DNA from: Chiloscyllium plagiosum
Lineage: Eukaryota
Direction: 5' to 3'
DNA length: 64,000 nucleotides
Assembly: GCF_004010195.1 (NCBI RefSeq)
Contig: NC_057730.1
Location: 34,378,923 to 34,442,922, forward strand
Shown: positions 1-63,263 of the stretch, in pieces
Layout: each line of letters starts with the position of its first letter
How positions within the stretch are numbered: the stretch's first letter is position 1
Notes under the pieces: model-generated
Told to the model about the DNA's origin: nothing
Databases searched by the model: none
What the model saw: only the letters and a program-made list of their open reading frames with translations
Translations under genes and position numbers: made by a program

Positions 1-57
1 TAGAGCCTGTGTCATATTCTCTCTCAGCTTCTCAAAGCTGGACCTACAAACTAACTA

Positions 58-676
58 GGACTGCAGATGTGCGAGATCAGAATTGAAAAGTGTGGTGCTG
101 GAAAAGCACAACAGGTCAGGCAGCATCCGAGGAACACAAGAATCACCATTTCGGGCAGTAGCCCTTCATCAGGAATGTGGGAGGGGAGAAGGGAGCTGAG
201 AGATAAATCAGAAGGTGGGAGTGGGATGGGGGTAGGTAGCTGGGAAGGTATTAGGTAGATGCAAGTGGCGGGGGTGATAGTGATAGGTCAGAGGGGAGGG
301 TGGAGCGGATAAGAAATTCAACCACACAGCATCAATGTCGACTTCACAAGTTTCTTTACCTCCCCTCCCCCACCTCATCCCAGACCCAAACCTCCTACTC
401 AGCACTGCCCTCTTGATCTATCCTATCTGTCCATCTTCCTTTCCATCTATCCGCTCTGACCTATCACTATCACCCCCCACCTGCATATACTCATCGCCTT
501 TCTAGCTACATTACCCCTCTTCCCCACCCTCTTATTTATTTTCCAGCCCCTCCCACCTCTCTCCCCCCACCCCCACATTCCTGATGAGGGGGTTATGCAT
601 GAAATGTCGATTGTTCTGCTCTTTAGATGCTTCCTGACCCGCTGTGCTTTTCAAGCACCTCACTTTTTGACCCAAG
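58..676. mobile_element. Penelope-like element remnant with inverted (fold-back) arms
   Basis: The left arm (gtgctggaaaagcacaacaggtcaggcagcatc...gcccttcatcagg) is the reverse complement of the right arm (cctgatgagg...gctgtgcttttcaagcacc). A direct repeat aactaacta flanks it at 49-57 and 677-685 (candidate TSD). Confidence 0.75.
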
Positions 677-1327
677 AACTAACTACAAATGGTGGAAGCT
701 TTCTCTCCCTACTCACTTCTAAGCTTTTCCAACTCCAAATGTAATACTCTTAAAAATCTTAAAAAATCACAAATAAACAAGAGTATCTCTCTGAAATGTC
801 CCAGATGGAGATCTCATCTAATTAACTTCACTTTCCAAAACATGCCCTTTGATCTGAAAAGGATGGTCACGTTAAGAATTTCCCTATATTTGCCATTTGC
901 TTTCCAACCTTCCTTTGATTTGGGAAATGATATGAATAATTTAAACCTCTTAAAAAGAGGTTTATCATATTGTCTCCACCATACTTAGAAAGGGGTGTCT
1001 CACTGTTCAATGTTTTCCCACTTCCCTTACTCAATAAATACAGGACACCCTTTAAATTGAAATTACTTTAAGTATGTTTACCATCCTTCCAAACGAGGTG
1101 CTTCTATTACCTCATCTTTAAAAATTTCAATGCACAAATGCAAAATTACATTTGTACAACATATGAATCATGGAATTAGACATTTTCACAACAATAGCCC
1201 AGCCCTCCTCCAGTAACATTCGCTCCTAGTTTCTAGAACATTGTCAAAAGCTATTTCACAACCTTTAACTGGTTACAATCCCAATCTTGTATTGATCTAT
1301 TCCTTGAATCTTCTTATCTAATAACAG

Positions 1328-1655
1328 GGAGGGGATGGCCTAGTGCTATTATTGCTAGACTATTAATCCAGAAACTCAGCTAATGCTTGGGGACCATGGC
1401 AGATGGTAGAATTTGAATTCAATAAAGATTCTGGAATTAAGAGTTTAATGATGACCATAAAATCATTGTCAATTGTTGGAAAAATTCACCCGGTTTACTA
1501 ATACTTTTTAGGGAAGGAAATCTGTCATCCTTACTTGGTCTGACCCACAGCAATGTGATTGGCTCTTGGGGAACTGTCCCTTGGGCAATTGGGGATGGGC
1601 TATAAATGCTGGCCCAGCCCTTGACGCCCATATTCAGTGAGTGAATTTTAAAAAA
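1328..1655 (+). mobile_element. tRNA-derived SINE with a LINE-type 3' tail
   Basis: A-box-like head (ggatggcctagtg). The tail gggctataaatgctggcccagcc...gaatttaaaaaa resembles the LINE 3' end at about 5745-5810. Confidence 0.6.
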
Positions 1656-3259
1656 CCTTCACCACTGTGAAGCAATTGAAGAATTTCAGTATATTAAGAG
1701 GTATCACAAGTAAAGGTTGTGCAAGAAATTTCTATATAACACCTCACAGGGAAGCTATCAAACAAAATTTGATACTAATTCACACAAGGTGACATAAGGA
1801 AATGTGATCAAAATCTTGATTTTAAGGAGTACCTTAATGGAGAAGAAAGCAGACAGATTTAAGGAGGAAATTCCTACTGGATCCTAGCAAGTGAAGACAC
1901 CATATCAACAGTAGGATAAAAAAGGACGTGGGAAATGCCCAACAAGCTAGAATTACAGGAATATAGATATCTACAAGGGTTTTGGATGGAGGAGAAATAG
2001 TAAGGAATGAGGCTGTTGACAGATTTGAAAGTAAGGATATGAATTAATTCAAAGCATTGACAGACAGAAACTAATGTAGGTCAGCTCATAAATGAATTTT
2101 AATTCTTGATCAGAACCACAAAGCAACCGGTGGCAACAGATGATGGAAGCCTGCTAGTGAGATACCACCCTCCAAGAAAAGCCATCTGTTAAAATTGACT
2201 GTAGTAACTCAAGTGAGACAGATAGCAAAAATAAAATCATTGCTATTAGCAATACAAAGTAGGCACCTGTCTCAGTAAGAATAAACTATCTTTGAAGGAA
2301 GGGAACACAAACCAAAATGGTGTTTCTCCCCAATGATGGTTGCTGACCTGTTGAGTACACCAGCATTTTGTTTTTCTATTTACAATAAATGCTTTTAAGT
2401 AGAACAGTAATTTATTGTCATTTGTATTTTTTACAACAATGTGAAAAGTATGCAAGTCGCCATATTCCAGCGCCATTTTAATAACAAATTATATGTATTT
2501 TTTTAAAAAAGAAAAAATTAAGACAAAGTCCATCTTAGTTCAATTCATAGCTCCAGGGCTCCTAAGATCAAGGAAACTGAATACTAAAGCTGCCGTAAGG
2601 AATCCAGACCACTGCCAAAGCCGCTCCAAGGAATCTCAGGTCAGGCTGGACCCACCATGCCACAAAAGATGCTGCAGGAGCCGCCATAAGGAATCCTGGA
2701 CCCATCACGGAAGCTGCCTCCAAAGCAGCCCACCATGTCGTAGGGTCTAATAGGATGCAACTGCTATGGCCATGAGGAATGATCAGATCCACACCACATT
2801 CTGTGCTGCAGCAGCCTCTTGAAACCTCCTTCCTCCCCAAAACTGCCAAAAGAATGTATGTTGAATTTTTATGTTAGAAAATAATAATAACAAAAAGGGA
2901 TGCAGCAGGTCTAGTGATCAGAAGCAAATGGGGTCAGGAACCTGAACATTTCCTACATCTTTGGGACTTATTTGTGCTCTGGGTTGCCTTATAAGTCTTA
3001 GCCCAATATTCTTCAAATAACTTTGTGCAATTTTTTTAATGAAATGGAAGAGGGGTCAGTGATTTAATGCCTTATTCCAAAGACAGCATCTATGGCAATG
3101 TTTCATTTCCTCAGAATAGCATGAAAATGTCAACAGAGGTAATGCAGTAAGTCTTTAGAGCGTTACTTAAACTCACAACATTCCAATTTAGGGGTCAGGT
3201 CCTACCATCGAGTCAAGTTTTATATATTTCTGACAATGGTCAGGTAACAATGAAAACCA

Positions 3260-3790
3260 AAGAAAGGACATGCACTTCCATTAGCACCTTTCACGGAGTT
3301 AAGTCTTCCCAAATACTGTACAACCAATAAAGTACTTTTGAAATTTTTACAATGTTGCAATGTGAGAAATACAGAATTCAATTTTGCACACAAGATCCTG
3401 CAAATGTGATAAATGCCATGAGTTAAGGATGTTGGTTGGCCAGAACACCAGACAGAACTCCTCTGCTCTTTTAAAAAGTCAGAGTCATACAGTCATAGTC
3501 ATACAGCATGGAAACAGACCCTTCGGGTCCAACTAGTCCATGCTGACCATGTTCCCAAATTAAACCGTCCCACTTGCCTGCTTTTGGTCCATATCCCTCC
3601 AAATCTTTCTGTCTGAAAGTGAAGGCTAGAGGTCAGATTTACTTTGAATTTAAAGCATGGCATCTCTGACAGCACATAATCCCCACCGTATTCCACTGGA
3701 ATATCAGGCTGGAATGAGCCAAATCTCTAGATTTGGATTTGTCCATCAGACGCAGAAGCAACAGTGCTCCCACTAAGCCTCAGCAGACAC
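3260..3790 (-). mobile_element. Old DeuSINE-like (SacSINE1-type) copy interrupted by a CR1 3'-tail fragment (about 3478-3610)
   Basis: Deu-domain-like segment ggcatctctgacagcaca...ttccactgg. The nested gtcatacagcatggaaacagacccttcgg matches the CR1 tails seen elsewhere in the window. Confidence 0.45.
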
Positions 3791-4191
3791 TTAAAGCATA
3801 ACTTAGTGTACTTAGTCTGTAGCTTTCAGACCACACATAAACTAGCACATCCAGAGTACAGACAGTAATTATTTATCTGTAAATCCAGCATCCCTGCCTT
3901 AAGGTCAGAAAAAAACTTTTTTTGGAAAAATTTAATTTTTTTAGCCAGAATGATATATATATTATATATATTCATGTCCCCAGCCACTAAACTGCTCTAG
4001 AGAAGATAGCTGATACACGCAGACAGGTTTAAACTATAAAGATAAATGTTACTCTGGCGAAGTGTCTCTTCAAAGCCATAAAGTTGAATTACTGTTAAGT
4101 CAACAGTTAATTGACTCAATCACTGTTAGGCTACAAGCCAGATGCCATAATTAAATGTTCATCCTACTTTCTAGTAATAAACACTATTTGA

Positions 4192-4348
4192 AGTCAAACG
4201 GTGTGGCACTGGAAAAGCACATTCCTGATGAAGGGCTTATGCCTCAAACATCGATTCTCTGGCTCCTCAGATGGCGTCTGACCTGCTGTGCTTTTCCAAT
4301 ACCACACTTTTTGACTCTGATCTCTAGCATCGGCAGTCCTCACTTTCT
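4192..4348 (+). mobile_element. Short PLE-derived insertion with a degenerate hammerhead motif
   Basis: cctgatgaagggcttatgcct...acctgctgtgcttttcca...cagtcctcactttc, preceded by a short inverted copy gtgtggcactggaaaagcac. Confidence 0.7.
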
Positions 4349-4794
4349 ATTATTTGAAGTCAGTCACCTCCTGAGGAAATAAGGAATTTCAAATTAGTGA
4401 TCAGCTCATCGCCATACTGTAAAAAACTGACATTTCCTGATACTTTCTTTGCATGCAGGGATTCAAGCCAAAGTAAGGTTTTTGGGTAAGAGGGCTGGGA
4501 CAACTTGGTCACAGTATCCATTGTGAAACTTTGGAATTTTCTTCTTCAAAAGACAGCAGAAGCAGAGTCTTTGAATTCCATTTTTTTTAAGACAGAGTTC
4601 AATACATTCTCAATAAGCATAGGGTAGATAGAAATGAGTCATTAGGTCAGTCATTACCTTATTGAATAGCAAAGCAGAGTTGAGAACCAGGGGCCTACAC
4701 CTCCTTCTAATGCATATGTATAAAGTGCATTTCCATTCCCATTTTAAAATCATACATTTTTATTGATCTTGATATATTATGGCTGGAAGGAACA

Positions 4795-5305
4795 TTTTTG
4801 CCAAAGTTTTTCATCTTGAACAGATCTGAGCAATTCACAAGAATTATCAGCATAAAGGAAAAACAATGTTTATATTATTTAAGGGGAGGCTCCTTATTAG
4901 TTGGCAAGTGGACTCCTTATTGGTAGAGGCATTGCTATGGATAACGTGCCAATTAATTGCGACACATTTGTATCTACTAGAAGCTGCATATATTAATGAA
5001 CAGGCCCTGATCTTTGGAAAGATAACATGTGCACTCTGTACTTATTTCAACACAACAATATAGGCGACAGCCATTCTCTGCTTCATTTTTCAGAGCAAAG
5101 TCAATCTGTCTGAGCTAAAATTTTAAAAAAATTTGACTGACTGCCCGCCATTATTAGTTAGCACATTTTTCATGGCAATGTCCCGAGTAATCAGAGTACA
5201 GTAGGCAACCATTCAGAAATTTCCTCTGATGCATTTTCCCTTGACTTTGGTTATTCTTGTGAATTATCCTAATCCATGCAAGATGAAAAGCTTCAACAAA
5301 TTGCA
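4795..5305. repeat. Old, diverged inverted-repeat (fold-back) element
   Basis: 4797-4870 (tttttcatcttgaac...caattcacaagaat) is the reverse complement of 5250-5300 (attcttgtgaatt...caagatgaaaagc). The inner arms 4900-4945 and 5168-5212 also pair imperfectly. Confidence 0.55.
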
Positions 5306-6084
5306 TCATTTACAGAAATTCCTAAACTCTGTACTACCAAGCGGCTATTCATATATTATTTTTAATTGATTTGCAGTGAATGAGATTAATATTAAAACAT
5401 TGGACATCTGGAAAGTTTAAGCAGCAGAAGATTGAAAACTAAGGTTCTCTAGCTCCACTGCTGGGAGTAGATTACAATTACAGAATGACAAGTATAAGCA
5501 GCTTTCATTAAGACACACTTGCCTTTATAGTGAGATTTTCACATCACTGGATGTTCAAAGCACTTTACAGCCAGAGAATTACTTTACGAAATGTAGTAAC
5601 TGCTGTAATGTACCAGCTGATTTGCAGTCAGCAAACTCCCATAAAAAGAAAAGTAATAATGACCAGATAATGCTTTTTTTGCAATATTGATCAAATATTC
5701 ACTAGGATGTCAGGGATCTCAGTTCTTCTTCATAAAAAGCTTCTTTTTAATTCGTTCTTGGGAAGTGGCCACTGCTGGCTGGACTAGTATTTGCACATCC
5801 CTATCCAGCCTTTAGATGGTGGCAAGATACCTTCTTGAATAGCAACAGCCGATTTGGTGTAGGCATACCCACAATGCTTTTAGAAAAGGAGTTCCCAGAT
5901 TTGACCTAACGACATTGAAGGTACAGCAATAGGAAGATGTGTGGCTTACAGGGAAACTTGCAGGCAATGTTCCCAAATATCTGCTGCCCTTGCCCTTCGT
6001 AATAGTGACAGTCATACGTTTGGAAGATACATTCTTAGGGGACTTGGTGAATTTATGCAATGCATCTTGTAAATTGTATCAAGA

Positions 6085-6352
6085 ATCCCTACAGTATGGA
6101 AGCAGGCCATTCATCCAGAGTCTACACTCGACCCTCTGAAGAGCATATCCCATGGCTAATCCACCTAGCCTGCACTTCCCAGGACACTGGGCAATTTTAG
6201 CATGGCCAAACCACCTAACCTACACATCTTTGGACTGTGGAAGGAAACCAACATAGACAGGGGGAGAATGTGCAAACTCCACACGGACAGTCACTCAAGG
6301 GTGGAATCAAACCCAGGTCCCTTACACTGAGACAGCAGTGCTAACCACTGAG
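6085..6352 (-). mobile_element. HE1-type tRNA/V-SINE
   Basis: Reverse complement of the head ctcagtggttagcactgctg, the B-box gtttgattcc and the V-domain-like tgtgtggagtttgcacattctcccc. Confidence 0.8.
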
Positions 6353-7640
6353 CTGGTGTTTTATTTTGGAAATTTGCAATATCCTCTCCTCCTGGTCCAT
6401 GCAACCACATCACTCCCTGTTACATCGCACCCCTCAAAGTGATCAGAAGTCCTTCAATTTGATAGTGATGTCTAATCAGGGGTGAGCAACTGCCCTGGGT
6501 CTTCATGTGACTGTCCTGATTTTTGAACACATAGGGCAGGTTGTCTCATGAGATAATGGAATCTGGATGACAGGATTTGCTTCCTTTCCTTGTCTGCTGC
6601 CACTTTGCATCAATAAGACATGGGGTGCAAAAGGCCAATGCAATCTGATGGACAAGTCATCAATAGGCAGCAAGCTCTTGCCAGATTTTCAAAACATTGC
6701 GCCTTACAAAAATGGCATCCACACTTGTGCCCTCGATAACAATGATGGACGGTCCAGAGGCCTGTCCCTGGACAAAAGCCTGTGGCTGTCGTCCCATTTG
6801 GTGCAAATGGGGGCCCAGGTGTTTCTTCTTGAAACTTGCACAAGACACTTACAAACTCTCCCCTTCCACCTGCTGATCCATTTCATTTTCACCATTTGCA
6901 GAGCCAAAAAAAATTCCTTTGTCCATAGCTATCGCTCACTTGGCACATGTGCACTGCTGCTACTGAGTGTTGGGGGTGGAGAAATTGAATGTTTATGGAT
7001 GTGGTGCCAATCAAGCAGGCTGCTCTGTCCCGGATGGTATCAAGTTTTGAGCACTGTTGGATTGGAGCAGCACTCATCCAGGGAAGTTTTGAATTGAATT
7101 AAATTAGCTTTATTGTCACATGTACTCACAAATACAAAGAAAAATTTACAAATCATCACTTATGGTGACTTGTATCAGAGAGTACTCCATCACACTGCTG
7201 ACTTTTACATTGCAGATGGTGGACAGACTTTGGGGATTCAGGTGGTTAGTTACTTGCTGCCTCATTTTGAACCTTTGAGTGCTCTTGTTGCCATGGTATT
7301 TATATGGCTAGTCCAGTTCAGCTTCTGATCAATGTAACTCCCAGGATGCCAATAATGGAGGATTCAGTTTTGGTAATACCATTCAATGTGACCGGGTGAT
7401 GGTAAGATTCTCTATTAATGGAGATGACCATTGCATGGCACATTTGTGGCATGAATGTTATTTGCTATTTGTCAGCCCAAACCTGGATATTGTTCAGGTC
7501 TTGCTGCATTTGTACATGATTGTTCCAGTATGAGGAGCCACAAATGTTGCTGAGCATTCAACAATCATCATCGAACTTCCCAACTTCTGACTTTACGATG
7601 GAGGGAAGGTCATTGCTGAAGCAGCTGAAGGCAGTTGCAC

Positions 7641-7760
7641 CTAGGGCTCTTGTGGCACAGGGGTAGTGTCTTAACTCTGAACCAGGAGGCCCAGGTTCAA
7701 ATCCCACCTGCTCCAGATGCGGATAATAACATCGCTGAACAGATTGATTCGAAAATATCC
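7641..7760 (+). mobile_element. Short tRNA-derived SINE; a second copy lies on the minus strand at about 8138-8246
   Basis: A-box-like gtggcacaggggtag and B-box ggttcaaatccc. The related inverted copy reads ...ttgaacccaggcc...cactagagccct. Confidence 0.6.
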
Positions 7761-8539
7761 ACCCTGTGGAACTCCTGCAATGCAGTCCAGGAGTTGAGAC
7801 AACTGACCTCCAATAACTGCAACCATCTTCCTTTGTGTCAGGTACGATTCCAGAGTATTTTCTTCGCAATTCCCATGTACTCAAGTTTTGCTGGGGCACC
7901 TGCTGCTACACTGTCAAATACAGCCTTGATGTGAAGGGCAGTGACTCTCACCTTCCCTCTGGATTTCAGCTCCTTGGTTTGAATCAAGGCTATAATAAAG
8001 TAATGAACTGAGTGGCCCGAGTGAAACCAAAACTAAACATCTGTGAGCAAGTTATTGCTCTACCAGTGCTTCATAGCACTACTGATGATCCCTTCACTGA
8101 TGGGAGTAGTAAATGGCCAGGTTGGTTTTGCCAATACTTTCTTATCAATCTGTACAGAGATGTTATTACACACTGAAGGCAGGACTTGAACCCAGGCCTC
8201 CAGAGCTAGCAGTTGGGACACGATCACCATGCCACTAGAGCCCTCCAGGTTGTATTGTCCTATATTTTTTAAGTGCAAGACTCACCTAGGCAATTTTCCA
8301 CATTGTTGGATAGATGCCAGTGTTGTAGTTGTACTGGTGCAACTGAAACATACATTTCAATACTGTATTAATTGTGTTAATGGGCACTTTTGCATTCATC
8401 CAAACAGGAAGATAAAGCCATGGTGTAACATTTCACCCAAAATATAGTAAGTCTAAAAGTGCAATGTTCCCTATTATACATACAGGTATTAGCATTTATA
8501 ATTTAAAAACTGACATGACAGGGAAAGTTACTTTATAGG

Positions 8540-8744
8540 AGAAAGTGAGGTCTGCAGATGCTGGAGATCAGAGATGGAAATGTGTTGCTGGAAAAGCACA
8601 GCAGATCAGGCAGCATCTAGGGAACAGGAGAATCGACGTTTCGGGCATTAGCCCTTCTTCAGGAAAGGGCTCCCGAAACGTCGATTCTCCTGTTCCCTAG
8701 ATGCTGCCTGACCTGCTGCGCTTTTCCAGCAACACATTTCCATC
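8540..8744. mobile_element. Young fold-back PLE-derived element with a 16-bp TSD and an intact hammerhead core on the minus strand (8633-8663)
   Basis: TSD aaagttactttatagg at 8524-8539 and 8745-8760. The arms are near-perfectly complementary. The minus strand reads cCTGAAGAagggctaatgcccGAAACGTCga. Confidence 0.85.
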
Positions 8745-9506
8745 AAAGTTACTTTATAGGCAGGAATACCACACAGATGCAATATCCATTAAACATGCAT
8801 TATAGCTATTCCTTCCCACGTCCAAATAGTGAATCTGTAACCATTGAGAGTGCAGATCTGACCTGAGAAGTTTCTGCCTTTAAGTTATGTTTTCATTGAC
8901 AACTGCCATCATCCAAGTCTGACTGGTTGTGGCCAATATGATTGTATTCAGTCTCAAACACTCAATAAACATGATAAGTGGTATAGAGTAGTGATGGGAG
9001 GGGAACAGATATGGACAAAGTGTGATGTGTTGAAATGTACAAATAATAACATGCTCCTCAAGGTACGAATGTGAAGTACTGCAACTGGAATTTCAATTGT
9101 AAATTAAAAAGCCAATGGACCCCCATTTCACGATTTGTCACCTGAATTTATCATATCAGTGGGGTATAGACAGGGGATAAGTGAGAAGACGAGAAGGTGC
9201 AATGGAGGTGGGACATAGTTTGCGAGAGAGGAAAGTTGGGCATAAAAAGTACAAGGAGTCCACGCTTTCTCCCACAAGGAGTAGGTGGTTAGAAGGTCGA
9301 CATGGGGGCTTGATGGAGATGCTCGGAGACTGTTACTGAGAGTCGCCGGGTAACAGGATGTAGAGACTCCCTCTTTAACAGACCGCCCTTTAACCTCCAG
9401 CCCTGCCAGACTGACCCTAGACTTCACTAAGGCCTAACGCCTCAGATGTTCCACTGAAGCCAAGATCAGGGCCTGTCCTGGAGCCTGAGCCAGGGTGTCA
9501 CGTTAC

Positions 9507-9570
9507 CTTCCTCCCCAACGCCACTCGGGGACACCACAGACTGCCTCTCTGCCGTATTCTCGGAATTCAT
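9507..9570 (-). CDS. E4F1: Probable first coding exon of E4F1 (MNSENTAERQSVVSPSGVGEE + phase 1); downstream exons not found in the window
   Basis: ATG at 9570 lies in a CpG-rich patch, and the donor is GAAG|GTAACG. The exon ends ...EE-G| like the recalled E4F1 exon 1 (..EE|DEDD). It is head-to-head with PGP as at human 16p13.3. The identity rests mainly on synteny. Confidence 0.55.
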
Positions 9571-9599
9571 CAGGACTTCCTCTCCCTTGTCGCAAGGAC

Positions 9600-9705
9600 C
9601 ACAAAATGGCGGTTTACGACCTGCCGCCAAAGGTGGAGCCAGCGGTGGAGCGGACACGCGTCACTGCGGCTGCGCAGACTGAGGCACGCTGGGAAATGTA
9701 GTTCA
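9600..9705 (-). promoter_or_regulatory. Housekeeping-type promoter: ZNF143/THAP11 site, NRF1-like site and YY1 site
   Basis: Minus-strand ACTACATTTCCCAGCGTGCC at about 9683-9702, TGCGCA at 9671-9676, AAAATGGCGG at 9603-9612. Confidence 0.75.
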
Positions 9706-9734
9706 CTCATTCATTGTGGAACAGAGTACAATTA

Positions 9735-9948
9735 TACAACACCAGGTTATAGCGAGCGACCTGATGAAGGAGTAGCGCTCCGAAAGCTAGTCATAGAGAT
9801 GTACAGCATGGAAACAGCCCCTTCGGTCCAACCCGTCCATGCCGACCAGATATCCCAACCTTCCAAATAAATCTGTTGGACTATAACCTGGTGATGTGTG
9901 ATTTTTAACTTTGTCCACCCCAGTCCAACACCAGCATCTCCTCATCAT
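9735..9948 (+). mobile_element. Second PLE-derived short family with a hammerhead core (9758-9792) and a nested CR1 tail
   Basis: gacCTGATGAaggagtagcgctccGAAAGCTAgtc. TSD agtacaatta at 9725-9734 and 9949-9958. Related copies at about 17280-17395 and 33523-33725. Confidence 0.75.
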
Positions 9949-10938
9949 AGTACAATTACCAATCTCAGTTTCATTTAAAATTATAAGTGAAGGGGGATGG
10001 AGTCTTGTAGGTTGATCTCTAATATTTGTTTTGTAATCAAATTAATCACATTAATTGAAAATCTCAGTTATCGATGAGATCCGATTATATAATTGATTGT
10101 TCAGTGTTTTTTCCTGCCCAGCGAAACTTGACCAAATCCCACTACTGCAGTGGAGTGTACTGAAAATGCACGGTTGGTCGACGCTGGTGTTATAAACAAT
10201 TTCCCTGGGATTAATACCCGCATCTTGGAGACTAACTCCATGGGGATAAAATGAGGGACACCACCGGAGGACTAGGTGGGTGTCTGCTGCCAAGATTGAT
10301 GGGAAGGTGTTCAGGTGAGGGTGGTACAGTATCGGCAAGATGTGATCACAGCGGTGAGTGGAACAAACAACGCTCGAAAAACTGGGGAGGTGGTGGACAG
10401 GTTCAGGGAAGAGTCCAGCTTAGATTACCCTGCGCAAGCCCTCCCCAGCTCAATTAGCTGAGACGAGGGTACATAGAAAACACAGAATGGAGTTCGAGGT
10501 TCAGGCGTATCTCAGTAAGATCTGGCAGAATCTAAGAAGAAAGTTAACATTTCGAGTTCGGTATGATTTCTTCAAAACCTAGAGAAAACAACTTGACAAA
10601 TCGTACAGTTGTTCAGCAAAGATGTTTCTCTCCAGTATCTTACTCAATTTGAATATAATAGCTACAGCCTTTGGTCTTTGTATTATTTATTACAGACAGT
10701 TGCTCTTAGTAGCTATGAAACTATCACCCATTGTGGTAAAAAAGAATCTGGGAAAGGTAGGCTGGCCTATATTCATTGGAGCTCCGAAGAATGAGAAGTA
10801 TTGAAACGTTCTGAAGGGGCTCCACAGCAAAGTTGCTGCAAGGATTATGTCCCTTGTAACAGAATCCAGATGGGAGTGAGGCGGTTTAAAAATAAGGATA
10901 AAATCAACGTGATGTAGAAACTCAGCAGGTTTGGCAAC

Positions 10939-11819
10939 GCCTGAACTGCTGTGCTCTCCAGCACCACTAATCCAGAAACTGGTTTCCAGTATCTGCAGTC
11001 ATTGTTTTTACCTAGTTGATTTTAACCCTACTGCGAATCCTTTTGCAAGGATGCCTGCCTTGAAGAAGTTTTCCTCCTCTCTCTACAAGAATCTCAGGGA
11101 GTCCCTCTCCCAAGTCCCAGGTCATTTCTTCTGCCCTGAAGCTCTTCAACCATGTCCTGAAACAAACTCTCTACCACAGCCACATTTGCTTTCTCCGTAA
11201 CCAATTCATCCCACACGGACTCTGGACCACCTTTAAACCAGCATAGTTTGGAGCTGAACAGGACAAACAGTACAGACTACAGATTCAAAAACACCAGCAA
11301 TGGTTCTCCCAACATTTCAACTCTCCCTCTCACTCTGCCGAGGACATGGAGGTCCTGGGCCTCCTTCACCGCCGCTCCCTTTCCACCAGATGCCTGGAGG
11401 AAGAACGCCTCATCTTCCACCTCGGAACACTTCAACCCCAGGGCATCAATGTGGACTTCAACAGTTTCCTCATTTCCCCTTCCCCCACCTCATCCTAGTT
11501 CCAAACTTCCAGCTCAGCACTGTCCCATGACTTGTCCTACCTGCCTATCTTCTTTTCCACCTATCCACTCCACCCTCCTCCTTGACCTATCACCTTCATC
11601 ACCTCCCCCACTCAACTATTGTACTCTATGCTACTTTCTTCCCCCCACCCACCAGCTTATCTCTCCACCCTTCAGACTCTCTGCCTTTATTCCTGATGAA
11701 GGGCTTTTGCCCGAAACGTCGATTTGAAGCTCCTCGGATGCTGCCTGAACTGCTGTACTCTTCCAGCACCACTAATTCAGAATCTGGTTTCCAGCATCTG
11801 CAGTCATTGTTTTTACCTA
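10939..11819 (+). mobile_element. Internally deleted Penelope-like retroelement (partial pLTR, ORF start, GIY-YIG C-terminus, 3' pLTR with hammerhead)
   Basis: 10939-11012 is a direct repeat of about 11743-11819. 11313-11470 translates as HFNSPSHSAEDMEVLGLLHRRSLSTRCLEEERLIFHLGTLQPQGINVDFNSF, typical of the PLE endonuclease C-terminus. The hammerhead core is at 11693-11720. Confidence 0.85.
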
Positions 11820-11958
11820 ACATCTATGGAGACAAAGTTAACGTTGAATCTGATATGATTCTTTTAGGTTTCCCCAGCACTTTGTTTTTATTTCAGATCC
11901 CCAGTATACACAGTCATTTTGCTTTTATTTGCACGTAGCTTGTATATGGAGTAAGGTA

Positions 11959-12779
11959 GCTGAAAATGTGTTGCTGGAAAAGCGCAGCAGGTCAGGCAGC
12001 ATCCAGGGAACAAGAGAATCGACGTATCAGGCATAAGCCCATCCTATGGAGTAAGGTAAACAAGCAGTAGGCTGGAAGAACACAGCAAACCAGGCAGCAT
12101 CAGGAGGTGGAGGAGCGTCCTACTCATCCATCTTGGATTCCAGTAACTGCAGTTATTTTTAAGTAGTGAGACGATTACTCCAATAATGGGTGGGACATAT
12201 GTGAATTGACGAGGTAAAAACAATGACTGCAGATGCTGGAAACCAGATTCTGGATTAGTGGTGCTGGAAGAGCACAGCAGTTCAGGCAGCATCCAAGGAG
12301 CTTCAAATCGACGTTTCGGGCAAAAGCCCTTCATCAGGAATAAATGGATGATGACCAGTGTGTAGGGATCTTGAGTGTGGTGCTGGAAAAGCACAGCAGG
12401 TCAGGCGGCATCAGAGGAGCAGGAAAATTGATGTTTCGGGCAAAAACCCTTCATCAGGAATGAGGCTGGTTTCCAATCCCAGTTCCAACCTTCCAGCTCA
12501 GCACCATCCTCATGACCTGTCTTACCTATCCATCTTCCTTCCCACCTATCCACCCTCCTGTCTAACCTATCACCTTTACCCCCACCTCCATCCACCTATT
12601 GCACTCTCAGCTACCTTCACCCCAGCCCCATCCCGCTCCAATATTTCTCTCCACCACCCCCGGGGCTCCTTGATGAAGGGCTTTTGCCCGAAACGTCGAT
12701 TCTCCAGCTCCTCGGATGCTGCTTGACCTGCTGTGCTTCTCCAGCAACACACCCTCAACTCTAGCCTGCAGTCCTCACT
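11959..12779. mobile_element. Cluster of at least three further PLE-derived insertions (11959-12044, 12212-12343, 12372-12779)
   Basis: A 14-bp TSD tatggagtaaggta at 11945-11958 and 12045-12058. 12212-12343 is a near-identical inverted copy of 11686-11818. 12372-12779 is itself a fold-back. Confidence 0.8.
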
Positions 12780-13136
12780 GTGGGCGGGTTGGGGGTCGTG
12801 CTCTTTCTATGAGGGGGCGGGGTACAATGGATGAGGGGCGGGGTCCTGGCGGGCGGTACCTGTCGGTTGCGGTGGTAAGAGGGGACTGTCAATTTGGGGC
12901 GTGACCTCGGCAACTGCGGGCGGGCCCAGAGTGGTGGGGGCGTGACCATAGTGTCCGGGGCGGGGCTCGTGTCTGGAGCAGCCTCTGACCGTTTGGGGCC
13001 TGTCAGTCTAGGGGCGGGGCTCGTCGTGTCTGGCGCGGGCTCTGACCGTTTTAGGGGCGGGGCTCGTCGCCACTGGGGGCGGGGTGTGACTGGTTACTTC
13101 GCCGGTTCCGGAGCAGGCGGCCTCCCCACCTTGGTC
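12780..13136 (+). promoter_or_regulatory. PGP CpG-island promoter and 5'UTR with six GGGGCGGGG Sp/KLF boxes
   Basis: GC boxes start at about 12814, 12835, 12957, 13011, 13054 and 13076, plus two GGGGCGTGAC. CpG-rich sequence continues through exon 1. Confidence 0.8.
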
Positions 13137-13737
13137 ATGTCTGCCGGTTGTGTTCACTTGTCCGGGGCTCTCTGCTCAGAGGTCCTGGCGTCGGTCGATA
13201 CCTTGTTGTTTGATTGCGATGGGGTGCTGTGGACAGGGGACAGCCCGATCCCCGGGGCCGTGCAGTTAATTAACCGGCTGCAGGAGCGGGGGAAGCGGGT
13301 CTTCTTCCTGACCAACAACAGCAGCAAGAGCAGGCAGATGTACGGGGAGAAGCTGCACGGCCTGGGCTTCCAGGCTCGCCCTGAACAGGTCTTCGGCACC
13401 GCGCCCTGCGCCGCACTCTATTTACGGCAGGAGGCCAAGCTCCGAGGCTCCGTCTACCTGATCGGCGGCGCAGCCCTCCGCGGGGAGCTGGCGGCACAAG
13501 GCATCGTCTGCTCGGGCTCTGGACCCGGTCCGGAGCTCACCCCTGGACCCGGGCCCACGCAGGCTTGGGCGGCCGAACCCCTTGATCCGTCTGTGGGCGC
13601 CGTGCTGATCGGCTTCGACGAGCACTTCACTTACATGAAGCTGTGCCGGGCCGCCCGCTACCTGCGGGATCCCTCCTGTATCTTCCTGGCCACGAATACC
13701 GACACCCTGCTCCCAACGGAGGGAGGTGGGATCCCGG
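13137..13737 (+). CDS. PGP: Phosphoglycolate/glycerol-3-phosphate phosphatase, exon 1
   Basis: HAD motif I FDCDGVLW and motif II LTNNSSKSR; ...IPG|GTAAGA donor (phase 1); synteny with BRICD5 and MLST8. Confidence 0.95.
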
Positions 13738-14292
13738 GTAAGAACTGACAAGAGGAACAGAAGCACTTGCAGAAACCGGGCTTGGAGAGCATGCCTCCAG
13801 TGAAGGATTGTGCAAGGCGACTGGATTTCAGGAAGTGAACAAGTCAAAAGCTGTTGTTGTACCGTATTACTCTGTGGTGTTTTGGAGATTAACTTTCAGC
13901 GGAGTCTATAATTTATTGGGTTTAATTCTCAGTCTGAAAACACCGACAAATTAGTTCGGAAAATTGCATGTTAGAGTCAGTTAGCTGGTGAAAATTGCGT
14001 TATTGAATCAATTGAGCACACTGAAATAAGATTAATCGGCCTCGCCAGTTTCAAGGCCATATCGATGCTTATATTATGAAATTTAAAATATGGCGATAAT
14101 GTTATTTCACGGTTCCAACAGCACTCCATCAGTACTGTCAGCTGAAATCCAACTGCGACATGGCCCGTATTTGCTTGATGTTTGGCTGAGAATTGCTCCA
14201 GTTAGTTTTCTGTCAGTGAACACTTGCTTGTTCGCTATGTTTATTGTCCTGAAGTTTCTACATTAGTAGAGTTTGGGACTATGGATTAATGT

Positions 14293-14421
14293 CTTCGAGA
14301 GAAAGTGAGGGCTGCAGATGCTGGAGATCAGAGCTGAAAATGTTGCTGGAAAAGCGCAGCAGGTCAGGCAGCATCCAAGGAACAGGAGAATCGATGTTTC
14401 GGGCATAAGTCCTTCTTCAGG
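14293..14421 (-). mobile_element. Short PLE-derived insertion in the PGP intron
   Basis: 17-bp TSD ggactat(g/a)gattaatgt at 14276-14292 and 14420-14436. The minus strand begins cctgaagaaggacttatgcccgaaacatcga. Confidence 0.8.
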
Positions 14422-14801
14422 ACTATAGATTAATGTACTGTGAAATTAACGAGCAGAACCGGTTCTGCTGGTTTTTCAAGTCTACTCTAAACTCATGGCT
14501 CTACCAATTATTAGACATTTGTTATCCCCAACCCTGCTGCCACTTAGTTTCTTGAAAGTAGCAAAAAAACTCAGGACTAATAGAAGCATAATTTGGGAAA
14601 TTCCTCTCTGATCCCTTCACGTAATCAATTAGTTTTTCTATGACAATGTGACTTCCTATTTCAACTGATTAATTGTCTCAATAGCTTTGTATTAATACTC
14701 TAATATCAGCTCCTATATTTCCAGTGTTATCCCCTTAATCATGTATCCCACTAAGTCCATAGTTATGATAGCTTGATACTAATCCTGTTCTCTCTCCACA
14801 G

Positions 14802-15124
14802 GCACAGGCTGCTTGGTGAAGGCAGTTGAAGCAGCGTCAAATCGCACGGCTCATGTCATCGGCAAGCCCAATGCTTTCATGTTCGATTGTATGGTGAAAG
14901 AGCATGGCATTGATCCAAGCAGGACAGTAATGGTGGGAGACCGGCTGGACACTGACATCCTTATGGGGTCCAATTGTGGCCTCCGCACCATCCTAACTCT
15001 GACTGGCGTTTCCACCCTAGAAGAGGCAATGGCCAATCAGAAAAGTGACTCCCCTGATGACCACAAGCTGGTTCCCAGCTATTATGTGGGCAGTGTAGCT
15101 GACCTGCTTCCATCACTTGATTGA
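14802..15124 (+). CDS. PGP: PGP exon 2 ([10 protein letters not shown]...GKP...VGDRLDTDI...LPSLD*)
   Basis: Acceptor tctctctccacag|; HAD motifs III and IV; 601+323=924 nt, giving 307 aa plus stop. Confidence 0.95.
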
Positions 15125-17734: not shown

Positions 17735-20222
17735 CTCGATGTCACGGAGGACCTCAAGGAGGTGAAGGGCCAGCAAGCCTCACTCATTGCCTCGGAGGCC
17801 TCCAAGATAATCTTCCGATCCAGGGTCCGCTCAGTGGAGCAGGACGAGACGTGTTCACGTTTCTTCTTCTAGAAGGTGCACAAAGAGAGCTCCGTGCTCA
17901 GCAGCCTGAAGGAAGAAGATGGCTCGATAACGTCATCTCAGGCTGACGTCACGAGGATCAGCAAGTCCTTCTATGCCAGTCTGTATGACGCGAAGCCAAC
18001 CGACAGCGTGGCCTCCCAGTCATTCCTGTCTTCTATCACAGAAGTCTTAGACGACCGAACACAGGAGAGGCTGGACCGGCCGAGCTGACCAAGGCCCTCG
18101 AGACCTTCGAAAAAAATAAAACTCCTAGAAGCTTACCGGTCGAGCTGTATTCCGCTCTGTGGGACTTGATTGGCCAGGACCTGCTGGAGGTGTATGTCAG
18201 TATGCTTCGGGCAGGTACCATGAGNNNNNNNNNNNNNNNNNNNNNNNNNNNNNNNNNNNNNNNNNNNNNNNNNNNNNNNNNNNNNNNNNNNNNNNNNNNN
18301 NNNNNNNNNNNNNNNNNNNNNNNNNNNNNNNNNNNNNNNNNNNNNNNNNNNNNNNNNNNNNNNNNNNNNNNNNNNNNNNNNNNNNNNNNNNNNNNNNNNN
18401 NNNNNNNNNNNNNNNNNNNNNNNNNNNNNNNNNNNNNNNNTTTGGGGAGGGAATCTGCAATTGGATCAGACTGCTCTACACCAACATTGTCAGTGCAGTC
18501 TCAATCAATGGGTGGGAATCAGATAGCTTCCCAGTCAGATCTGGAGTCAGGCAGGGCTGCCCTCTCTCTCCTGCCTTGTTTGTGTGCTGCATAGAGCCAT
18601 TTGCCAAGTCCATCAGGAAGGATGCGAGCCTGAGAGGGGTGACTATTCCTGGCAGTGGGGGCCTGCAGATTAAGGCCTCCCTGTACATGGATGATGTCGC
18701 CATTTTCTGCTTGGATCCACTGTCCATGCACAGACTCATGTGACCAGTTTGAATGGGCCTCGGGGGCCAAGATAAACTGAGGCAAGAGCGAGGCCATGCT
18801 CTTCAGGAACTGGGCCGACCAATCCTCGACCCCCATCACTGTCAGGACCGACCACCTGAAGGTGCTGGGTATTTGGTTTGGGGGGGCTGGGCGTGCACCA
18901 AGTCTTGAGAGGAGCATATCAGCAAAGTGAGGCAGAAACTGGGCAGATGGAAGCTACGGTTGCTCTCCATCGCGGGGAAAAATCTGGTCATCAGGTGTGA
19001 GGCACTGTCACTGCTGTTAAACGTGGCACAGGTCTGCCCTATTCCCAGAACCTGTGCTGCTGCAGTCACCTGGGCCATTTTCCAATTTATATGGAGATCA
19101 AAGATGGACGGGTCTAAAGGGACTCGATGTATAAAGATCTGGGCAATGGGGGAAAAATACACCCAATGCCACCCTCACCCTGATGGCCACCTTTGTGTGT
19201 GGCTGCATCAAGCTGTGCGTGGACCCTCGGTACGCAAACACCAAGTGTCACTACGCATTGAGGTTCTACCTGTCCCCGGTGTTGCGAAGGATGGGCCTGG
19301 CTTCGCTGCAGCGGAACGCTCCAAGTAGTTGGACCGTTCCGTATCACCTGTCCTTCGTGGAGAAGTTTATGAAGAAAAACACCTTTGACCACAAGTCTAT
19401 CAGGAAGTGGTCAGCACGTAATGTCCTTGGGACCCTTCGGGAAAAGGAGAGGGCGGATCCTATCGAGCGGTTCCCTGAGCAGGCTGTCAAAGTCATTTGG
19501 CAGAATGCCTCATCGCCAGAACTTTCCAACAAGCACCAAGACATGGCTTGGCTGGTGGTGAGAAGGGCTCCGCCTGTGAGATCCTTTATGCACGCCCGGA
19601 CTCTCTGCCGCACCATACGCTGCCCTCGAAGCGACTGCGGGGGAGACGTGACTGTCACACACCTCCTTCTGGAATGTGCCTATGCAGAAGAAGTCTGGAG
19701 AGGAATGCAGTGGTGTTTGTCGAGGTTCGTCCCGAGCAGCGCCATGACGTGGGACTCCATGCTCTACAGTCTGTTCCCTGGGACGCACACCGAGACGAAC
19801 ATCAACTGTGCCTGGAGGATCATCAACTCAGTGAAGGACGCTCTCTGGGAGGTCCGAAACCTGTTGATCTTCCAGCTGAAGGAGCTGACCCCGACTGAAT
19901 GTTGCAGACTGACACATTCCAAGGTCCAGGACTATGTATTGAGGGACGTGCTGAAGTCTGGTGCAGCTGCCGCTAAGGCGCGCTGGGGAAAGACCACCGT
20001 GTAATGTCTGTCTGCCTAAGCACAGGGGGCTGACACAGTAAGGGGGCTCCGCTGACCCTCCAGCTAAATATGTGGATAGTAATCGTACAGACCTGTATAT
20101 ATGAATGATTACTCTGTCTCTGTATGCAAAGAAATGGAATGTTTACGTATGTATGGCATGACCAATTGTACAGATCATCAAAATATTTTACAAATAAAGT
20201 ATATTTTTGAAATTAAAAAAAA
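17735..20222 (+). mobile_element. 5'-truncated, disrupted Tx1-type (L1 clade) LINE ORF2 with poly(A) end
   Basis: RT motifs GVRQGCPLSP and LYMDD; C-terminal Cys/His region (CPRSDC...HLLLEC); stops and frameshifts; AATAAA plus an A-run at about 20193-20222. Confidence 0.9.
18225..18440. other. Assembly gap (216 N) inside the Tx1 RT domain
   Basis: Run of N. Confidence 1.
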
Positions 20223-26554: not shown

Positions 26555-26740
26555 CCTGGGAAGGCAATAGGTGGATGCAGGTGGGGAATAATTGTGATAG
26601 GTCGATGGGGAGGATGGAGCAGATAGGTGGGAAGGAAGATGGACAGGCAGGACAGGTCAAGAGGGCAGTGCTGAGTTGGAGGGTTGGATCTGGGATGAGG
26701 TGGGGGAGGGAAGATTTGGAAACTGGTGAAGTCAATGTTG
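26555..26740 (-). mobile_element. PLE 3' region fragment
   Basis: Homologous to 240-300 and to the reverse of 330-500 and 11450-11600. Confidence 0.7.
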
Positions 26741-33368: not shown

Positions 33369-33875
33369 ATAGAGCTGTACAGCACGGAAACAGATCCTTT
33401 AGTCCAACACGTCCATGCTGACCTTGTATCCTAAATTAATCTAGTCCCATTTGTCAGTATTTAGCCCATATCCCTCTAAACCCTGCCTATTTATTTACCC
33501 ATTCAGTTGCCTTACAAATATTATGATTTGGAGGAGCCAGTATTGGCTGGGTTGGACAAAATTAAAAATCACACAACACCAGGTTATAATCCAACGGGTT
33601 TATTTGGAAGCACTAGCTTTCGCAGTGCTGTTTCTTCCCAAGGTGATGAACACGCAGGGCTGCAAAAGCTAGTGCCTCCAAATAAACCTGTTGGACTATA
33701 ACCTGGTGTTGTGATTTTTAACTTGTAAATGTTGTAATTGAACCTGCCTCCATGACTTGCTCTGGCAGCTTATTCCATACACACTCCACCCTCTGTGTGA
33801 GAAAGTTGCCCCTTAGATCCCTTTTAAATCTTCCCCCCATCACCTTAAACCGATGCCCTCTAGTTTTGGATTCCC
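33365..33875 (-). mobile_element. CR1 3' fragment with a nested fold-back PLE-derived element (about 33523-33725)
   Basis: CR1 tail and GHRFKV..RFKRDLRGNFLTQRV. The nested arms acaacaccaggttata...ttatttggaagcactagcttt and aaagctagtgcctccaaataaa...tataacctggtgttgt are complementary. Confidence 0.8.
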
Positions 33876-41645: not shown

Positions 41646-41764
41646 TCAGCCCAGAACGCTGTCATTAAAGGCCAGGCACACGACTGCCTTCTGATGGCCA
41701 CTGTACTCTCGTTTAATTTCACCTGTCTCCACACACCACAGGCGCGCAAGGTTATCTGAAGAGG
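41646..41764 (-). CDS. MLST8: mTOR-associated protein LST8, last coding exon
   Basis: [39 protein letters not shown]; acceptor ctcgctcacag|. Confidence 0.98.
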
Positions 41765-41932
41765 CTGTGAGCGAGAAAAATAACATTATTCTTCAGTACG
41801 CATAGAATGCTCATCGGCCATCAATTTAGTCTTCTGGATTAAAACATTATAACATACTCTATAAAGGTCTTGAGCTCACTGCTGGATAAAGTCAGTTACC
41901 TAAATGGATTTATGCAGAAGTGGGTACGGTAG

Positions 41933-43185: not shown

Positions 43186-43191
43186 ATCAAA

Positions 43192-43376
43192 TCAGATGCT
43201 GGAGATCAGAGTCAAGATTAGAGTGGTGCTGGAAAAGCACAGCAGGTCAGGCAGCATCTGAGGAGCAGGAAAATTGACAGTCTGGGCAAAACCCGATGAA
43301 GGGCTTTTGCCTGAATCGTCGATTTTCCTGCTTCTCGGATGCTGTCTGACCTGCTGTGCTTTTCCAGCACCACTTT
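43192..43376. mobile_element. Fold-back PLE-derived element at the CR1 5' truncation point
   Basis: agtggtgctggaaaagcacagcaggtcag...ctgacctgctgtgcttttccagcaccact, with a degenerate hammerhead at about 43293-43320. Confidence 0.8.
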
Positions 43377-44161: not shown

Positions 44162-44325
44162 CTGTGACAATATATTGTGAATCCCCAGAGAATGCACAGT
44201 CCCACATCCAGCCTCGTGATGTCTCTCCTGGATTGTTGCTCTTGATGCTAAGCTCTGTCATCAGCGAAAAATTTGAAGTCCTCCATATTTTACAGGTCTG
44301 GTCAGCTGAGCATGTAGCAAGAAGT
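44162..44325 (-). CDS. MLST8: MLST8 coding exon 7
   Basis: [54 protein letters not shown]; AG/GT boundaries; 164 nt. Confidence 0.98.
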
Positions 44326-63134: not shown

Positions 63135-63263
63135 AGAGTCCTGATGTTGCACTGTTCTAGTGCAGATACCGCTGTGTGCTTGCCAAAAGCGGACGGTGTG
63201 ATCATAACCAGCGGTGGCCAGAATGACAGGGTCACTGCCCACTGTGCCCGGACTTGTATTCAT
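63135..63263 (-). CDS. MLST8: MLST8 first coding exon (exon spans 63135-63285; the upstream non-coding exon is outside the window)
   Basis: [43 protein letters not shown]; upstream acceptor tttttgttacag|. The eight exons sum to 981 nt, 326 aa. Confidence 0.98.

Follow-up and report, generated by a model that had tools for sequence, protein, structure and literature searches.

Minimal hammerhead ribozymes (min-HHRs) in the pseudo-LTRs (pLTRs) of metazoan Penelope-like elements (PLEs) were described in 2014 (Cervera and de la Peña, PMC4209133). According to that paper, the genomes of fish, coelacanth, and frog each contain thousands of them, the helix I of the Drosophila virilis min-HHR has 2 bp, and cleavage of the monomers is absent. 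The role of the hammerhead in endonuclease-bearing PLEs is unsettled (Craig, 2021, bioRxiv 2021.04.23.441226). In PAc, the Poseidon element of Anolis carolinensis, the hammerhead needed the PLE protein, and insertion proceeds without cleavage; the open reading frame (ORF) begins at stem II, and reverse transcription begins 111–118 nt into it (Frangieh, 2024, PMC11167929). We analyzed a 64-kb stretch of Chiloscyllium plagiosum DNA (the window), in which a sequence-only reading had described a recurrent hammerhead motif on short mobile units derived from PLEs.

Two Families of Minimal Hammerhead Motifs

We searched all 64 kb with a strict descriptor (CUGANGA, an optional extra base, stem II, GAAA, a palindromic 15.2-16.2, UH, and a 2.1-1.1 pair). 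It gave exactly four perfect matches, and none in each of 20 dinucleotide shuffles. The seven variants of the motif that had been reported were also present in the window sequence.

8635-8662, minus strand: intact family A core (strict descriptor), predicted cut after 8635
9761-9789, plus strand: intact family B core, with GGAG/CUCC as stem II and AGCU as palindrome; cut predicted to follow CUA, at 9789
11693-11720, plus strand: intact family A core (strict descriptor), predicted cut after GUC, at 11720
12310-12337, minus strand: intact family A core (strict descriptor)
145-172, 12430-12457, and about 14392-14420, minus strand: variant cores
581, 4225-4252, 12670-12697, and 43293-43320, plus strand: variant cores

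The anatomy of a minimal type I hammerhead, as the sequence-only reading had proposed it, was found in all four perfect copies: CUGANGA, GAAA, and UH stand in type I order, an extra nucleotide lies between A9 and G10.1 together with a G10.1-C11.1 pair (4/4), and the palindromic 15.2-16.2 (ACGU or AGCU) leaves no stable helix III. Helix II has 4 bp, and helix I is as short as that reading had cautioned (2 bp in family A, 3 bp in family B at 9761). An intermolecular 4-bp duplex of the palindromes has a calculated energy of −1.7 kcal/mol for ACGU and −2.5 kcal/mol for AGCU. Families A and B differ by four two-sided changes that preserve pairing (10.3-11.3, G-C/A-U; 10.4-11.4, C-G/G-C; 15.2-16.2, C-G/G-C; 2.2-1.2, U-A/A-U), and none of the seven pairs compared is broken; the second family and its covariation-like changes are thus borne out, as a single contrast of two families and not as a covariation statistic. 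The comparison of core with downstream flank that had also been proposed gave a modest excess of core conservation (5/110 versus 69/548 differences, p = 0.013). Across 10 copies, the core and stems show 20 differences, of which 11 lie at CpG positions, as is expected under neutral decay.

An Rfam search returned no hammerhead family among 13 matches at E values up to 10, which is no evidence against a motif that lacks helix III. Exact-pattern scans of metagenome contigs and of viral contigs found 0 loci in each. At the level of sequence, the motifs are confirmed as genuine minimal type I hammerhead sequences with predicted cut sites.

A Deleted PLE and Short pLTR Insertions

The hammerhead at 11693 follows the endonuclease end of a PLE, and the 77 nt downstream of it recur upstream of the start of the ORF.

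10938-11819, plus strand: internally deleted PLE, about 880 bp, without reverse transcriptase
10939-11014, plus strand: its partial upstream pLTR, repeating 11743-11819
11051 (ATG) to stop 11244-11246, plus strand: its ORF start, with a frameshift near 11110; 56/70 identical to protein P0003
near 11307, plus strand: its deletion junction, an in-frame fusion of ORF start to endonuclease end
stop 11496-11498, plus strand: its endonuclease end, 40/63 identical to protein P0004
downstream to 11819, plus strand: a C/T-rich 3′ UTR, then hammerhead 11693-11720, then the pLTR end

Only the two ends of the ORF remain in this element, and its start is 80% identical to P0003, a Chiloscyllium protein. The homologues P0004–P0006 match GIY-YIG and P0005 matches RVT_1, all below Pfam cut-offs; a Pfam scan of the PLE pieces in the window gave no matches, and a search of representative proteins gave no named protein among the 150 of its 228 matches that were listed. 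A Cys-rich linker, deleted in the window copy, precedes the endonuclease in P0004 and P0005, and a Zn-finger linker between reverse transcriptase and endonuclease is a clade criterion (bioRxiv 2021.04.23.441226); these sequences point to a Neptune type for the shark homologues. The deletion junction is covered by no contig joint or piece listed, and the index contained no look-alike of it. As the 64-kb window holds no full-length PLE, the autonomous parent is inferred from the protein homologues. The PLE origin claimed for the motif finds a direct link in the protein remnants that flank it here, and the comparisons place the hammerheads on short pLTR pieces of PLEs that are probably endonuclease-bearing. 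The insertions are as follows (TSD, target-site duplication; C3, core position 3).

8540-8744, minus strand: fold-back pLTR insertion, sense arm 8665-8540 starting 3 nt before C3; perfect 16-bp TSD, 8524-8539 and 8745-8760
8540-8572, minus strand: its 33-nt tail, which ends the sense arm and is on one arm only
8665-8744, opposite arm: its inverted tail-less arm
9735-9945, plus strand: family-B pLTR insertion with a short inverted arm (about 9736-9752) and a tail; 13-bp TSD with 1 mismatch, 9722-9734 and 9946-9958
9792-9859: 68-nt fragment from a different abundant repeat, inserted 2 nt past the family-B cut site
11959-12044, minus strand: 86-bp stub without a tail, whose start lies within the core at +5 from C3; perfect 14-bp TSD, 11945-11958 and 12045-12058
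12059-12160: fold-back piece, without a hammerhead, from a related pLTR family
12209-12344, minus strand: stub with a tail and the intact core 12310-12337, beginning 7 nt before C3; no TSD found
12374-12779: head-to-head pair of a minus and a plus arm; no TSD found
12465-12374, minus strand: its tail-less minus arm, with variant core 12430-12457
12476-12779, plus strand: its plus arm, with a 3′ UTR piece, the C3U variant core 12670-12697, and a partial tail
14293-14422, minus strand: tailed stub in an intron of PGP, antisense to it, starting 2 nt before C3; 17-bp TSD with 1 mismatch, 14276-14292 and 14420-14436
53-671: head-to-head pair with longer pLTR arms (311 to 53 tailed, 317 to 671 tail-less) and variant cores 145-172 (minus) and 581 (plus); 9-bp TSD
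4192-4349, plus strand: stub with a tail, a 30-nt inverted arm, and variant core 4225-4252, beginning 4 nt before C3; 12-bp TSD
33530-33728: decayed family-B fold-back whose centre, in both arms, is the 5′ edge of the core
43193-43377: family-A fold-back centred on the core, with variant core 43293-43320

In the 9761 copy, the 68-nt insert replaces the remainder of the 3′ strand of helix I; the joint of 9791 to 9860 was seen in all four runs and in the loose-end consensus, and 9788-9861 has many further matches in the window. The variant core of the 14293 stub has a stem II mismatch and a broken palindrome.

Units of 90–200 bp flanked by TSDs had been described, and this holds for part of the set: a TSD above chance was found in 6 of the 12 units tested (150-site null) and none was detectable in the other six. 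The units with a TSD contain only two of the four intact motifs, 8662 (minus) and 9761 (plus), and the motif at 11693 belongs to the 880-bp deleted element, so that a short TSD-flanked unit for every intact motif was not found. The 8540 unit is absent from a contig of a related organism, an empty site seen in a single contig of depth 5.8 that is about 5 nt shorter than clean excision predicts. A contig of that organism enters the 9735 unit, up to 9786, and this insertion is therefore likely to be common to both organisms. pLTR pieces cover about 2.0 of the 6.0 kb in 8500-14500. Summed contig depth was 12–35 over most unique bins and 1e5–3.5e6 over repeat bins, one contig set (X1) alone contributing 236,657 contigs; this is a sign of great abundance rather than a copy number, and it agrees with the very high density that had been claimed.

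The insertions lie among host genes.

9507-9620, minus strand: likely first exon of a minus-strand gene, matched by a putative RNA-derived contig that then leaves
13140-13738, plus strand: coding part of exon 1 of PGP (phosphoglycolate/glycerol-3-phosphate phosphatase; Pfam Hydrolase_6; PDB 7po7, E = 9.6e-56)
about 14800-15124, plus strand: coding part of PGP exon 2

The stretch 9500-9750 is CpG rich, and a putative RNA-derived contig stops at 13738, the end of PGP exon 1. Intron 1 of the minus-strand gene would then contain the 8540 unit, the hammerhead being in sense. It is very unlikely that such copies are working ribozymes on host RNA, whether this intronic copy or a dimer of 11693 and 12670 (both plus). 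The four perfect cores and the lower rate of differences in the core would fit such a role, but the core at 8662 is predicted to be wholly buried in the hairpin of its unit (probability 0.0 in context for both stem II and helix I) and is absent from the related organism, 12670 carries C3U, and the cores at 11693, 12337, and 9761 are flanked by two CpG-rich promoter regions that are divergent; the published monomer and PAc results also count against it. Folding gave stem II a probability of 0.95 and helix I about 0.1 for 11693 as a 50-nt monomer, and helix I about 0.1 or less for 12337 (minus). In one polyA single-cell RNA run, covered at about 2 in 100 reads, many molecules began or ended at no position, but this type of library is unable to reveal either a cut or a start. 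The window has five tandem arrays, with periods of 14–21, none over a motif. With one copy enclosed in a long hairpin, another interrupted, and none in tandem, the copies are likely to be inert where they now sit; the helix I probability of about 0.39 at 9761 means that inertness is not established for every copy.

Ends of the Insertions and the Origin of the Stubs

In 9 of the 15 insertions an arm begins no more than 10 nt from the 5′ edge of the core, and the 5′ ends of 12 of the 24 arms fall within −10 to +10 of C3. This clustering has p values of 4e-6 to 7e-4 under geometric truncation nulls, which were devised for this analysis, with family-B ends read by eye. Several arms start inside the core (+5, +6, and +9), and four longer arms extend into the 3′ UTR and ORF. 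None of the 24 arms starts within 5 nt of the cut site, which rules out 5′ ends defined by cleavage and, with the position of the ends at the core edge, agrees with uncut RNA as the template. For this window, the same count and the tandem-array result contradict a spread of the units as non-LTR retrozymes through circular RNA. Descent of retrozymes from pLTRs has been reported, one chondrichthyan included (bioRxiv 2026.07.22.740005), but none of the five arrays is a head-to-tail array with the motif and the cores are minimal, not canonical; we give this reading the least credence of all.

The 3′ ends of the arms are fixed at two places separated by about 33 nt: tailed arms stop at about +115 to +126 from C3 and tail-less arms at +80 to +91, so that the 33-nt tail is optional. 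Loose ends of contigs pile up at 8534-8537, 11963, 12373, and 14299 with heterogeneous flanks (agreement 0.36–0.56), indicating that many other copies have the same 3′ ends. By analogy, these ends correspond to the initiation at two sites that was observed in vitro for PAc. The tailed end lies 115–118 nt past the point where stem II begins, and its agreement with the 111–118 nt of PAc may be chance, because the homologues look like Neptune types and PAc is a Poseidon, and because the ORF begins about 36 nt after the tail end and not at stem II.

The 3′ ends of the short units also occur on longer pieces, which run through the 3′ UTR and the end of the ORF; the short units thus fit 5′-short copies of ordinary PLE RNA. 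The description of the units as non-autonomous PLE derivatives is accordingly upheld for their descent and not for a self-spreading family of their own. We think it probable that the stubs are short copies of the PLE's own RNA, likely inert where now found. The PLE protein would nick AT-rich DNA, as inferred from Anolis PAc (PMC11167929), and reverse transcription would begin at two internal positions of the RNA (about +85 and about +125 from C3 in this case), giving tail-less and tailed ends. Many templates would have begun a few bases before the hammerhead, so that copying from the first pLTR would produce stubs of 90–130 nt headed by the core, and read-through RNA would produce the longer pieces. 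The ribozyme would be under selection in the source elements and cut only as a dimer or with the help of the PLE protein, and the stubs would be copied from uncut RNA.

On this account, the clustering of 5′ ends likely marks the start of the RNA. Alternatively, the enzyme could have stalled ahead of the C-rich 3′ UTR or switched templates where the inversion lies, the stubs then being ordinary 5′-truncated copies of long RNA made as the reverse transcriptase leaves the hammerhead. PLEs typically show strong 5′ truncation and inverted 5′ copies (bioRxiv 2021.04.23.441226), palindromes at inverted junctions have been interpreted as self-priming (PMC3846280), and the starts inside the core also fit. 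However, the enzyme would meet the folded ribozyme first at its 3′ side (about +28), where none of the 24 arms starts, and four arms run well into the 3′ UTR. We regard this mechanical origin as possible but considerably less probable than short copying of RNA that began near the core.

A true non-autonomous, SINE-like family, transcribed from an internal promoter and recopied in trans by the PLE protein, appears unlikely. Its 5′ and 3′ ends would be nearly fixed, as observed; stub 12209-12344 is 97.7% identical to 11686-11818; and summed depth, which is not copy number, is about 7-fold or more higher over pLTR bins than over the ORF-start bin. Drosophila Penelope has an internal promoter (PMC2377424), and in rotifers pLTRs are enough for mobilisation in trans (PMC3846280). 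Against this, the four longer arms carry the same sequences on into the 3′ UTR and ORF, inversion centres vary among units, as expected if each was made anew at insertion, and a stub-only subfamily is not demonstrable within one window. We are equally doubtful of its extended form, in which transcription of the PLE in this shark lineage begins at the hammerhead's 5′ edge and the 90- to 130-nt leader is itself the self-transcribing element recopied in trans. If this were true, the leader would combine the core, a protein-binding stretch, and the start sites of reverse transcription, the stubs would show where the promoter lies and delimit the minimal unit that acts in cis in a vertebrate PLE, and the uncut ribozyme would be a structural cap and not a cutter.

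Comparison with Known Systems

In PMC4209133, the min-HHRs share with those described here the type I core, the extra base between 9 and 10.1, the G10.1-C11.1 pair, the palindromic 15.2-16.2, and the lack of loop III, as well as the occurrence of several covarying families per genome, mostly as scattered single copies from truncated PLEs. Helices II and I have 4 bp and 2–3 bp here, compared with 7–8 and 4–5 bp in Schistosoma. The part of that paper covered here names no cartilaginous fish and no clustering of 5′ ends at the core, and in the literature covered, essentially open papers, we found no paper on shark PLE hammerheads or on such clustering. The motif class, extra base, palindrome, covarying families, and scattered single copies are already in print there, and since PLE minimal hammerheads and solo copies have been published, our data add little as a ribozyme find.

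Endonuclease-bearing PLEs (Arkhipova, 2013, PMC3846280; Craig, 2021) share with this locus 5′ truncation, a partial upstream pLTR, an inverted 5′ copy, a 30- to 40-bp tail confined to one end, TSDs that only some of the copies have, insertion into other PLEs, internal deletions, and solo pLTRs. In contrast to those elements, most insertions here are cut down to 90–200 bp and are very dense. With PAc, the locus shares a similar spacing from stem II, and it would share two internal starts of reverse transcription that define the tail and an uncut RNA template. It differs in the position of the ORF start relative to stem II and the tail, and in clade, as the Cys-rich linker of the shark homologues points to Neptune. 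Non-LTR retrozymes (PMC7229834; bioRxiv 2026.07.22.740005) are likewise non-coding, hammerhead-bearing, and related to pLTRs, but they are head-to-tail tandems that give circular RNA, whereas the copies here are scattered singly or in head-to-head arrangement and have PLE tails and TSDs. Beside these systems the value of the locus is indirect, in that the shark stubs, which form a very large set, preserve the points at which copying begins and ends.

Hammerhead motifs and conservation of their core

A strict minimal-hammerhead descriptor found four perfect motifs in the window and none in 20 shuffles; when one mismatch was allowed, the counts were 6 and 0-1, and when two were allowed, 12 and 0-3. 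The perfect motifs belong to two families:

8635-8662, minus strand: family A
11693-11720, plus strand: family A
12310-12337, minus strand: family A
9761-9789, plus strand: family B

The seven variant motifs listed by the sequence-only reading are all present, and an Rfam search of the window returned no hammerhead. Every feature testable here fits the minimal hammerheads of Penelope-like elements (PLEs), cleavage being predicted only, and we regard this identification as very probable. A viroid study reportedly describes an extra base in a hammerhead.

Families A and B have the core in common, and among seven stem pairs there are four two-sided changes that keep the pair and none that breaks it. 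Such changes are in line with the covariation proposed for these stems, but as a single contrast between motifs chosen for having stems they are suggestive only. In other copies of family B, seen as loose contig ends, the flanks give a 3-bp helix I.

Of 14 aligned arms, 10 include the complete core and were used to count conservation; the other four, which start inside or after it, were left out. Differences from the majority occupied 5/110 cells in the core, 15/150 in the stems, 9/50 in the loop plus N7, and 69/548 in the downstream flank. The excess conservation of core over flank on which the sequence-only reading had staked its proposal was therefore found (p=0.013; with CpG sites removed, 4/100 versus 61/528, p=0.02). 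In the core and stems together, 11 of 20 differences lie at CpG positions. Because differences between subfamilies enter the flank count and two of the copies are almost identical, this conservation suggests that the source elements were under constraint rather than every single copy.

A third hammerhead family is represented by two decayed look-alikes, at about 10545-10580 and about 11840-11875, both on the minus strand. Each has a longer stem II and a GUU triplet followed by AAC, and neither passes the descriptor even with two mismatches allowed; it was into the second, a host remnant, that 10938-11819 inserted.

An internally deleted PLE between two divergent genes

The insertion at 10938-11819 is a PLE that has lost its middle. 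Its parts are:

5' end: partial pseudo-LTR (pLTR) of 76 nt, repeating 11743-11819 at 93.5%
11051: ATG of the ORF, which matches the PLE protein homologue P0003 (56/70 residues; first 20 residues by eye)
near 11307: in-frame junction to the last 63 residues of the PLE endonuclease region (40/63 to homologue P0004)
3' part, in order: C/T-rich 3' UTR, hammerhead, 99 nt to the end

The element is dead, since a frameshift and a stop interrupt it and the reverse transcriptase is missing. Its protein matches are four only, from Chiloscyllium punctatum and Stegostoma tigrinum, which makes a carpet shark the likely source of this vertebrate DNA; homologues P0004-P0006 have weak GIY-YIG matches and P0005 a weak RVT_1 match, all below Pfam cut-offs. 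P0004 runs on through a similar 3' end, finishing LMKG..PKR, as does one window frame over the motif, which makes the same arrangement of ORF end and motif likely in Stegostoma. An older opposite-strand pLTR remnant encloses the element, and its two halves rejoin across it. At the left junction, organism A and an organism-B contig enter the element at an identical position, so the insertion is likely to predate the split between the two, whose contigs are about 3% apart.

At 11696-11825, an ATG contained in the core (CUGAUGA) begins a short reading frame that runs for ~40 codons across the tail. In the upstream copy its stop falls just past the tail and the real ORF starts ~36 nt beyond the tail; the frame could be an upstream ORF.

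The motif region spans the starts of two divergent genes, and further exons lie to the right:

13140-13738, plus strand: coding part of PGP exon 1
9507-9620 (region 9507-9700), minus strand: likely first exon and promoter of a gene head to head with PGP
41700-44460 and 62949-63281, minus strand: WD40 exons, convergent with PGP

A second exon of the minus-strand gene was sought in 1-9500 and none was found. The WD40 exons, from their peptide, presumably resemble MLST8. The two divergent CpG-rich promoter regions are separated by a 3-kb gap (9700-12900), where pLTR pieces from three or more families are nested, some having inserted into others. Elsewhere, 17989-20004 (plus) is a broken LINE-type reverse transcriptase ORF remnant, classed by eye, in which 18225-18440 is a gap of 216 Ns, and a tRNA-like head at 51867-51939 (minus; 23 bits, under the Rfam cut-off) is likely a SINE.

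Ends of the short units

Counting families A and B only, PLE pieces take up 3.5 of the window's 64 kb, and within 8500-14500 about 2.0 of 6.0 kb. When all family-A arms were placed on a common scale with the core reference base C3 at 0, two preferred 3' ends emerged, at about +115 to +126 and +80 to +91; loose ends of other genomic copies, with unrelated flanks, pile up at the same points. The fold-back pLTR insertion at 8540-8744 (minus), which carries the 8662 motif, has an extra 33 nt on its sense arm that is absent from the inverted arm. This corresponds to the PLE tail, which bioRxiv 2021.04.23.441226 and PMC3846280 describe as 30-40 bp at one end only. A PLE 3' UTR piece at 26556-26733 (minus) ends about 60 nt short of the hammerhead and so lacks the usual 3' end.

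The units had been described as flanked by target-site duplications (TSDs). This held for 6 of 12 tested, with TSDs of 9, 12, 16, 13, 14, and 17 bp above a 150-site null; in the other six, the search found none above it. The 8540 unit is present in organism A run X1. In organism B, one contig (X16 record 9, at depth 5.8) runs from 8515 to 8745 with only 3 intervening letters; it thus lacks the whole unit together with one copy of the TSD, and some 5 nt beyond what a clean site would lose. This single contig is direct evidence that the unit inserted recently.

Half of the arms (12/24, in 9/15 insertions) start no further than 10 nt from C3; no arm of the 24 (15 insertions) has its start 5 nt or less from the cut site. 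With this pattern the 5' ends cannot have been set by cleavage; it would fit a transcript that begins just ahead of helix I. A non-LTR retrozyme (cf. PMC7229834) was rejected, as no motif lies in a tandem array and 0/24 arms start at the cut site. Mechanical truncation, which we consider unlikely, would share the rest of our reading and differ only in what sets the 5' ends. The set misses very short or old pieces, and family-B ends were read by eye; against a geometric truncation null devised in this analysis (means 60-250 nt), the insertion count near C3 gives p 7e-4 to 4e-6.

The anatomy, ends, TSDs, and empty site are observed. We infer that templates beginning at the 5' edge of the core would yield the stubs (pLTR pieces of 90-130 nt), read-through templates would yield the longer pieces, and the inverted arm would form during insertion. 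That the stubs are instead a self-propagating SINE-like family seems more doubtful still. Our account of PLE-derived hammerhead stubs as a whole is, we think, probably correct.

Predicted activity and comparison with known elements

In folding predictions, a long hairpin takes up the whole 8662 motif, leaving helix I and stem II at probability 0.0. For the motifs at 11693 and 12337, the probability of stem II is 0.95 (50 nt) and that of helix I no more than about 0.1; the 9761 motif has helix I at about 0.39, and a 68-nt foreign repeat lies 2 nt past its cut site. None of the tandem arrays in the window contains a motif. Lunse et al., taken up in a review (PMC6765202), are said to have studied hammerhead dimer cleavage.

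In the polyA RNA run X21, the joint from 9791 to 9860 is bridged by 244 reads, which therefore contain a family-B site left uncut; 261 reads show an A run past 9886, soon after AATAAA at 9866-9871. The reads over 9761-9886 come from other family-B loci, and their consensus resembles one dominant diverged locus. Some poly(A) sites may be provided by family-B pLTRs, genomic A runs being an alternative source.

Our literature searches turned up no account of these shark families or of the clustering of 5' ends, and supplements may name chondrichthyan motifs. In published work, a Schistosoma minimal hammerhead failed to cleave as a monomer and cleaved weakly as a dimer or trimer (PMC4209133), and 8/9 Xenopus dimer elements failed to cleave (bioRxiv 2026.07.22.740005). 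Drosophila Penelope has an internal promoter whose start lies 46 nt ahead of a 75-nt intron (PMC2377424); the intron ends at helix I (PMC4209133), and the start in that element is therefore not at the core. The PAc hammerhead cuts only with its own protein, and insertion does not need cleavage (PMC11167929). By analogy with PAc, reverse transcription here would start internally at two sites, giving tailed and tail-less ends. The tailed end falls 115-118 nt past the start of stem II, compared with 111-118 nt for the PAc counterpart, although the two differ in clade and ORF position.
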